Assembly (NCBI RefSeq): GCF_001677475.2
Contig: NZ_CP015229.1
Direction: 5' to 3' (one strand)
Origin: Escherichia coli
Lineage (GTDB): Bacteria > Pseudomonadota > Gammaproteobacteria > Enterobacterales > Enterobacteriaceae
DNA length: 64,000 bases
A model generated the notes under the pieces. It was not told the DNA's origin, did not search any database, and was given only the letters and a program-made list of their open reading frames with translations. Shown one piece after another: positions 36,060-36,188 of this stretch. The first letter of the stretch is position 1. Each line of letters opens with the position of its first letter. Position numbers and translations under genes: made by a program.

Positions 36060-36188
36060 TCAGTCAGGGAGGGGGGGGACATATATGGCAAAAGCCCGGA
36101 AAATCCGGGCTTCGCAGGTCCCTCAAGGGGAGAAAACTTAGGGCCTCTATGGGCTACAGAGTCATTATCGGGGATGGTGATTTTATTG

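Follow-up and report, generated by a model that had tools for sequence, protein, structure and literature searches.

A small RNA gene adjoining the MazF-fold gene yifN of Escherichia coli, a putative toxin and RNA-antitoxin module, and a G tract in the neighbouring ppiC-yifN spacer

The closest described relative of the element reported here is ecr3777(d+), a small RNA (sRNA) of Escherichia coli K-12 (Romero 2014; Conway 2014) that is known from the literature solely through detection of its transcript; nothing has been described of a partner gene, or of its conservation, structure or function, and it is found in neither Rfam nor RefSeq. The stretch analysed here, 64,000 nucleotides of E. coli contig NZ_CP015229.1 (the window, in which all positions are numbered from the first letter), includes the E. 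coli ilvC-ppiC-yifN-rep region and carries an sRNA gene at the same locus, on the same strand and of the same size as ecr3777(d+), directly beside yifN. We propose that this sRNA gene and yifN, whose product has a MazF fold, form a toxin and RNA-antitoxin module, that an 18-codon open reading frame (ORF) on the opposite strand is a chance frame, and that a run of eight G residues in the adjoining spacer is a tract of no evident function; we put the probability of this reading at roughly 0.6. More tentatively, and a little short of an even chance, we suggest that the pair is a previously unrecognised kind of module, in which a MazF-fold endoribonuclease is held in check by a single-copy, structured sRNA of ~75 nt with its own promoter, without a MazE-type protein or a ToxI-type array, spread by plasmids and islands in Gamma- and Betaproteobacteria and leaving K-12 with an orphan antitoxin beside a dead toxin.

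Among described toxin-antitoxin systems, the locus resembles the type III systems ToxIN, CptIN and TenpIN in having a putative endoribonuclease toxin that adjoins a non-coding RNA gene, is mobile or plasmid-borne and lacks a protein antitoxin. It differs in that the yifN-linked sRNA is single-copy, lies downstream of or convergent with the toxin gene and has its own promoter, whereas the type III RNA is an upstream tandem-repeat array (no tandem repeats were found within 35900-36950), and in that YifN matches MazF structures and not ToxN/AbiQ. With the type II systems MazEF, PemIK and Kid-Kis it shares the fold of the toxin and the positions of the catalytic Arg and Thr/Ser, but a MazE/PemI-type antitoxin gene was adjacent in none of 23 yifN loci, and YifN has an insertion of ~20 residues after strand 1 relative to MazF. 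An adjacent sRNA with its own promoter, and a possible short pairing in the toxin coding region, recall the type I systems TisB/IstR-1, RalR/RalA and DinQ/AgrB; YifN, however, is a 149-residue protein of soluble-type nuclease fold, not a small membrane or hydrophobic peptide, and the pairing, of ~7 nt, is weakly supported. As in MicL- and DapZ-type sRNAs, the promoter overlaps the end of the upstream coding sequence and the terminator is shared, but the yifN-linked sRNA has the opposite orientation in three loci and travels with yifN from host to host. The toxin fold of the module is that of type II, its RNA partner is type III-like but has no repeat array, and there is at most a type I-like seed.

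The elements of the module in the window are the following.

36189..36638, minus strand: yifN, 149 residues, intact, with a GTG start and an AAGGAG Shine-Dalgarno sequence; encodes a putative MazF/PemK-fold endoribonuclease toxin
36164..36192, minus strand: sRNA promoter TTGACA-17-GATAAT (-35 at 36192-36187, -10 at 36169-36164), overlapping the yifN stop codon
36086..36157, minus strand: sRNA gene of ~72 nt, the K-12 'ecr3777(d+)', identified from promoter, Northern, Term-seq and covariance model
36088..36116, minus strand: intrinsic terminator, with its core at 36094-36110 extended by A:U and G:C pairs between GCGAAG and CUUUUGC
36094-36110: core stem-loop GCCCGGA-AAA-TCCGGGC, followed by TTTT on the minus strand

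The minus-strand segment 36086-36157 is an independent sRNA gene with its own sigma-70 promoter, a defined 3' end and a transcript detected by both Northern blot and RNA-seq. The promoter scored 11/12 in a promoter scan, with a predicted start near 36157 and a transcript of ~72 nt ending at the hairpin. Its -35 element reads TTGAC or TTGAT in 26 of 30 orthologous loci, the -10 element ends 6-7 nt before G+1, and this G+1 is common to 29 of the 30. A constitutive binding peak of RpoD holoenzyme was located in the ppiC-yifN spacer by systematic evolution of ligands by exponential enrichment (Shimada 2014). In K-12, ecr3777(d+) was reported as a Northern-detected RNA of 79 nt on the minus strand of the ppiC-yifO spacer, absent from six databases and independently seen by Conway 2014 (Romero 2014, PMC4681348, Table S5 and Fig. 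7). With the offset of +1977 between two K-12 reference versions fixed via a known ppiC/yifN variant, its coordinates convert to ~36158-36079 in the window. The supplements of Cappable-seq and SMRT-Cappable-seq studies gave no coordinates near the locus.

The 3' end has been mapped as well. Term-seq located a strong 3' end at K-12 3959909(-) in three growth conditions, with 39-63 thousand reads, an intrinsic terminator score of 5.26 and a Rho score of 0.55, and hence not Rho-dependent (Adams 2021, PMC7815308); this position is 36086 in the window, 9 nt after the core stem. The stem of 7 bp, extended to 10 and followed by UUUU, has the form of an intrinsic terminator. An earlier reading of this DNA, made from the sequence alone, had taken the hairpin for the probable yifN terminator; it does end minus-strand transcription, but it is not only yifN's, since it also ends a separate, Northern-detected sRNA with its own promoter. 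The RNA opens with a conserved 5' block (GUAGCCCAUAGAGGCC), which an A/U-rich linker joins to a small hairpin; the terminator with its tail (CUUUUGCCA) follows, and nucleotides 1-72 are identical in the window and K-12. A permissive Rfam scan of 35600-37000 returned only noise (best E ~0.5-2, far below gathering scores), and the RefSeq annotation of K-12 has nothing at the sRNA locus, neither an sRNA nor an ORF.

Two further observations concern this gene. The often-reported MG1655 'ppiC/yifN intergenic C-to-T' difference (U00096.2 3,957,957) falls at window position 36111, which is nucleotide 47 of the sRNA and part of the extended terminator helix. At many loci a palindrome, TTGAC-N5-7-GTCAA (such as TTGACGATTTCGTCAA), has the sRNA -35 element as one of its halves and resembles an operator; E. 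coli has it weakly or not at all.

The link between the sRNA and yifN extends far beyond E. coli. A scan of GTDB species representatives found 16 yifN homologues (in Superficieibacter, Photorhabdus, Xenorhabdus, Pantoea, Chimaeribacter, Serratia, Cupriavidus and Roseateles), and the sRNA lies directly after the yifN stop codon in all 16. Synteny with ppiC and rep is found among these in Superficieibacter only, and in most of them nucleotide similarity to E. coli is confined to the sRNA, together with the last ~25 nt of yifN in some. Further loci in which the sRNA accompanies yifN were found on pseudomonad genomic islands, on pCAR1, on an E. coli IncX1/IncF plasmid and on Rep/Mob plasmids of 2-4 kb from Aeromonas and Shewanella, where yifN comes immediately after rep, which brings the total to ~30 loci in Gamma- and Betaproteobacteria, on chromosomes, on pCAR1-type plasmids and on plasmids of 2-4 kb. 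A covariance model of the sRNA, built from 22 sequences, had its sole match in the window at this locus (83 bits) and recovered the sRNA in loci outside the seed at 34-85 bits, including pCAR1 and the E. coli IncX1/IncF plasmid, with no match in a yifN-less E. coli locus. Overall, the sRNA was present in all but one of the yifN loci searched. In the reciprocal direction, 10 metagenome sequences matched the sRNA pattern, four of them genuinely, and in each of the four a yifN homologue lies 56-90 nt upstream. Neither phage genomes nor IMG/VR contigs yielded the module or the sRNA. Together the sRNA gene and yifN are a two-gene module that occurs in many genomic contexts. A literature search found no paper that links the sRNA to yifN or describes an sRNA antitoxin for a MazF-fold toxin; the RNA itself is known but uncharacterised, and its conserved partnership with yifN appears to be new.

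Plasmids carry the gene widely: ~105 have a yifN homologue, and homologues were found on pND6-1 and p1448A-A. The E. coli plasmid pRHB38-C10_3 holds a second, divergent copy of the module at 2001-2594, with a YifN of 56% identity and an sRNA scoring 85 bits. With such a plasmid-borne copy some strains may hold two modules, which raises the question of cross-talk between them.

The assignment of YifN rests on family, fold and residues. The protein matches the Pfam family PemK_toxin (PF02452, E = 7e-11), its AlphaFold model has a predicted local distance difference test score (pLDDT) of 81.6, and the top 50 PDB matches of that model in Foldseek are all MazF, EndoA or MoxT, with template-modelling scores (TMt) up to 0.79. 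The invariant residues R45 and S65 align with the catalytic R29 and T52 of MazF. PADLOC and NCBIfam have no family for YifN, and a sequence search of the PDB returned nothing. A protein partner was sought in 23 loci, and no ORF of at least 35 residues recurs within 700 bp of yifN, except for genes of the syntenic E. coli-Superficieibacter pair; in E. coli the yifN-rep gap is 160 bp. The window, like many E. coli, has an intact yifN. In K-12 the gene is a pseudogene through a 1-nt deletion (GACCATGAC to GACCAGAC), and in strain A15 it has been frameshifted separately by a homopolymer change from C5 to C4.

Comparison of the orthologous RNAs points to a conserved structure. The helices are paired in 94.9% of alignment cells, and 26 cells show double changes against 7.9 +/- 3.3 in shuffled alignments, none of 500 shuffles reaching 26. 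In the terminator helix, compensatory changes occur at 5 of 10 pairs among 22 sequences, and covariation backs both the extended terminator helix and a small central hairpin. The invariant 5' end of the sRNA, UAGCCCA (nucleotides 2-8), also matches the Trp-Ala-Lys codons of yifN mRNA over 7 nt, and at sRNA position 3, which faces the wobble base of the Ala codon, all six U3 variants face A or G. This short pairing is suggestive, although confounded by phylogeny. Long-range antisense pairing with yifN mRNA, sought per species and with aliduplex, gave no convincing conserved duplex. A role of the sRNA as a mimic of rRNA or tRNA, or in targeting them, was considered and set aside; within the window only 9-mer matches at chance level were found, and the varying sRNA positions gave no support. 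One of these 9-mers, UAGAGGCCC, lies at 19766, a short way downstream of the 16S gene, and probably represents the tRNA-Glu D-loop.

From these properties we infer that the sRNA is the antitoxin of YifN. The sRNA is transcribed from the TTGACA-17-GATAAT promoter over the yifN stop codon and ends at the intrinsic terminator; YifN would be a MazF-fold endoribonuclease toxin without a protein antitoxin, which the sRNA would neutralise. The likelier mechanism would be type III-like, the sRNA binding YifN directly or acting as a pseudo-substrate. A type I-like mechanism, in which the 5' end UAGCCCA would pair with the Trp-Ala-Lys codons in yifN mRNA, seems less likely. We lean to direct neutralisation of the protein by the RNA over pairing, on evidence that does not discriminate between the two.

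Several points weigh against the proposed module. In K-12 the sRNA is detected where yifN is frameshifted, so that its expression is independent of an active toxin. A yifN homologue in a Pseudomonas mosselii prophage has no match to the sRNA model and is followed instead by a different promoter-terminator unit. The central fold of the RNA is ambiguous, two small hairpins or one long-range helix fitting about equally well, and the alignment behind it is small and phylogenetically clustered. The consensus duplex between sRNA and yifN mRNA is weak (-8.7 kcal/mol, against -4.9 +/- 1.3 in column shuffles, the best of which reached -9.2), and the Trp-Ala-Lys site covaries in part only, 12 of 20 being paired. 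Finally, the primary 5' end is taken from the Romero 2014 table.

The unit at the P. mosselii prophage locus (1480-1620) consists of a TTGACA promoter, a short transcript and a strong terminator after the yifN homologue, and from its layout it is possibly an alternative RNA partner.

The proposed module offers a candidate partner and function for a K-12 sRNA that has been seen by Northern blot yet is missing from Rfam and from the K-12 RefSeq annotation, and it would explain why, in thousands of genomes, a gene annotated as a 'type II toxin' stands without an antitoxin. Should the sRNA prove to be the antitoxin, a MazF-fold toxin could be under the control of an RNA without repeats, which would blur the boundaries between types I, II and III, and there would be a further plasmid-borne module whose part in plasmid stability or phage defence could be screened.

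The alternative that survives best, though we think it unlikely, is that the sRNA is no antitoxin at all but an ordinary regulator, trans-acting or of the 3' untranslated region type, of host genes or of ppiC, linked to yifN by a shared terminator and by co-carriage. Its architecture of conserved 5' end, A/U-rich linker and terminator is one that base-pairing sRNAs typically have; in most loci it runs in the same direction as yifN and uses the same terminator, and it is expressed in K-12 despite the dead yifN. Such a regulator would not, however, be expected to stay beside yifN from Escherichia to Cupriavidus and on plasmids of 2-4 kb, where a host-specific target could not be conserved. The three loci in which the sRNA is convergent with yifN also argue against it, since in this orientation the sRNA must be an independent gene and not a 3' untranslated region, and the lack of any protein antitoxin found for a MazF-fold protein that retains its catalytic residues would be left unaccounted for.

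A second alternative places the hairpin in the service of the downstream gene:

35754..36035, minus strand: ppiC, downstream neighbour of the sRNA gene and on the same strand

The hairpin would be an attenuator in a long ppiC leader, TTGACA-17-GATAAT would be the ppiC promoter, and the 72-nt RNA would be a by-product of premature termination. The spacer of the window gives this idea some substance. Compared with K-12 it lacks a 46-bp segment that includes an extended -10 element like TGCTAAAAT, and from the sRNA terminator to ppiC this short form shows no good promoter of the sigma-70 type, so that ppiC in short-form strains may depend on read-through of the terminator. The 3' end has moreover been classed as 'upstream ORF, -96 of ppiC' (Adams 2021, PMC7815308). 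The same RNA is nevertheless found beside yifN homologues with no ppiC nearby, and yifN-less E. coli keep ppiC without the RNA; in K-12, coverage is 127 downstream of the 3' end against 70 upstream (Adams 2021, PMC7815308), pointing to a separate ppiC promoter. We regard attenuation as improbable, and retain the toxin and RNA-antitoxin module as the preferred explanation of the sRNA gene.

In K-12 and most E. coli the 46 extra bp lie beside ppiC and are flanked by direct repeats AATTGTCAG (K-12 locus sequence 527-600).

It was the other side of the terminator that had first drawn attention to this locus, through the following elements.

36071-36078, no strand: G8 tract (C8 on the ppiC/sRNA strand), within GGGAGGGGGGGG, read directly from the letters
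36085..36141, plus strand: 18-codon ORF MAKARKIRASQVPQGEKT, with ATG at 36085 and TAG at 36139-36141, antisense to the sRNA and judged spurious
36049..36083, no strand: hypervariable junction spacer, with the conserved yifN-sRNA module on one side and the conserved ppiC-proximal flank on the other, from the alignment of spacer forms

The G8 tract lies 8-15 nt past the 3' end of the sRNA and 36-43 nt upstream of the ppiC ATG. It is neither within a coding sequence nor between -35 and -10 elements, but sits in the spacer after the sRNA terminator. Spacer forms were counted among 5,426 complete E. coli genomes, and tract lengths were obtained by exact-haplotype searches within the short form, as follows.

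Long spacer form, ~3,460 genomes: K-12-like, with G(T/G)GGCTGGT and 46 extra bp holding the extended -10
Short spacer form, 545 genomes: as in the window
Absent form, ~1,400 genomes: no yifN, sRNA or spacer, with ppiC 87 bp from rep
G8 within the short form, 1 genome: strain A15
G7 within the short form, 194 genomes
G6 within the short form, 61 + 284 genomes (345): two flanking haplotypes
G5 within the short form, 1 genome
Other tract within the short form, 4 genomes

The sequence-only reading had described G tracts of this length as slippage-prone and as possible mutational hotspots, regulatory elements or sequencing artefacts. Slippage holds for the 36071 tract, which varies from G5 to G8 among strains, and not for the runs near argX and between ravA and kup, which are fixed in length in the genomes compared and are not hotspots. 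An artefact is excluded for the difference between G6 and G7, each of which is found in hundreds of independent assemblies, and is possible for the rare G8 and G5, each found once, which may reflect either true slippage or a faulty assembly. The common lengths go with particular haplotypes, 284 genomes having G6 together with the C-variant and 194 having G7. The 36071 G8 is a lineage-specific homopolymer outside the module, in a fast-evolving spacer, whose length has been changed by slippage (G5-G8) and which has no evident function. Of three similar-looking G-runs, only this one is unstable.

A functional reading of this variation, that the G/C tract is a phase-variable contingency element tuning ppiC expression or the efficiency of the sRNA terminator, strikes us as very improbable. 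Tract length does range from 5 to 8 among strains, and the tract, C-rich on the RNA strand, lies 8 nt past the terminator and ~40 nt upstream of ppiC; C-rich RNA is the type of sequence bound by Rho. Lengths that follow haplotypes are unlike free switching, however, the extremes G8 and G5 are singletons and possible assembly errors, most E. coli have no tract here, and no promoter element is spaced by it. A tract of no evident function remains our reading of the 36071 run.

BLAST comparison with the empty site of yifN-less strains showed homology stopping at 36048 and resuming at 36840, the segment 36049-36839 being replaced in those strains. Derivation of the G tract from an ancestral GAGGCTGG at the insertion junction was considered as well, and BLAST against the empty site gave no confirmation of it. 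Over the 15 kb of 30000-45000 the best identity of the window to any of the 5,426 complete genomes is 97.8%, and its ppiC-yifN spacer is 99.7% identical to that of strain A15, although the window is only ~98% identical to A15. Such identities suggest that the window derives from a divergent Escherichia lineage, and local recombination may have taken part.

The 18-codon ORF is judged a chance antisense frame. A start codon in its frame is present in 12 of 27 orthologous sRNA loci, several of the 12 stop after four codons, and differences in loop length among loci break the frame, so that the conservation expected of a small protein is lacking; Superficieibacter, the closest syntenic relative, has ACG in place of the ATG. 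Where the window has the G-run, K-12 carries GTGGCTGGT. The ribosome profiling (Ribo-seq) supplement of Stringer 2021 has no entry at the ORF position. A plus-strand region of Rho-dependent termination, antisense to the start of ppiC, has been mapped at K-12 3959826(+) (Adams 2021, PMC7815308), at about 36003-36050 in the window, and weak plus-strand transcription would accordingly stop before the ORF is reached. That the G8 is a strong Shine-Dalgarno sequence for a translated 18-codon protein, as first supposed, is hardly credible: although GGGAGGGGGGGG sits 6 nt upstream of the ATG at 36085 and the ORF sequence is identical in K-12, the start codon is missing in 15 of the 27 loci, the G-run is absent from K-12 and most E. 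coli, the frame lies antisense to an abundant sRNA and contains its terminator, what little plus-strand transcription there is ends upstream of it, and neither RefSeq nor the Ribo-seq table searched includes it. A small ORF with a 'perfect' Shine-Dalgarno sequence can thus be the antisense shadow of an RNA gene, and the G-run and ORF as first described are ordinary.

All the elements of that first description (the G8, the ATG, the ORF, the hairpin with TTTT, and the two further G-runs) are present at the coordinates given for them. The two other runs are these:

58511..58518, plus strand: G8 near argX, inside the 17-bp spacer of the argX-hisR-leuT-proM promoter TAGACA-17-TATTAT
7528..7534, plus strand: G7 in the divergent ravA-kup intergenic region, in the loop of the inverted repeat CTCAAAG...CTTTGAG

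On base composition only (G = 27%), ~1.4 G-runs of at least 8 are expected in 64 kb, against two seen. The number of G-runs is no higher than chance, and their non-random aspect is their position: all five G/C runs of at least 7 in the window lie outside protein-coding sequence. These include two runs that had been overlooked, one of seven C (36825-36831) in the rep leader and one of eight C (58855-58862) within the tRNA-Leu gene leuT, which show that G:C homopolymers of 7-8 nt can be stable functional sequence. In yifN-less strains the rep-leader C7 has its counterpart in CCCCTCCC, a C-rich part of the rep-proximal spacer.

By sequence comparison the argX G8 is a T-to-G variant of K-12 GGGGTGGG; 311 genomes are identical to the window here, and the length of the tract is the same in all but one of the 30 genomes listed. 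In the ravA-kup region, where 5,337 genomes align over at least 80% of the query, the aligned span is of equal length in every full-length row sampled (28 of the 30 genomes listed), and the first row, 100% identical, confirms G7. The 7-bp inverted repeat that holds this G7 (7516-7553) sits downstream of a TAAAAT hexamer, and may be part of the kup leader or promoter.

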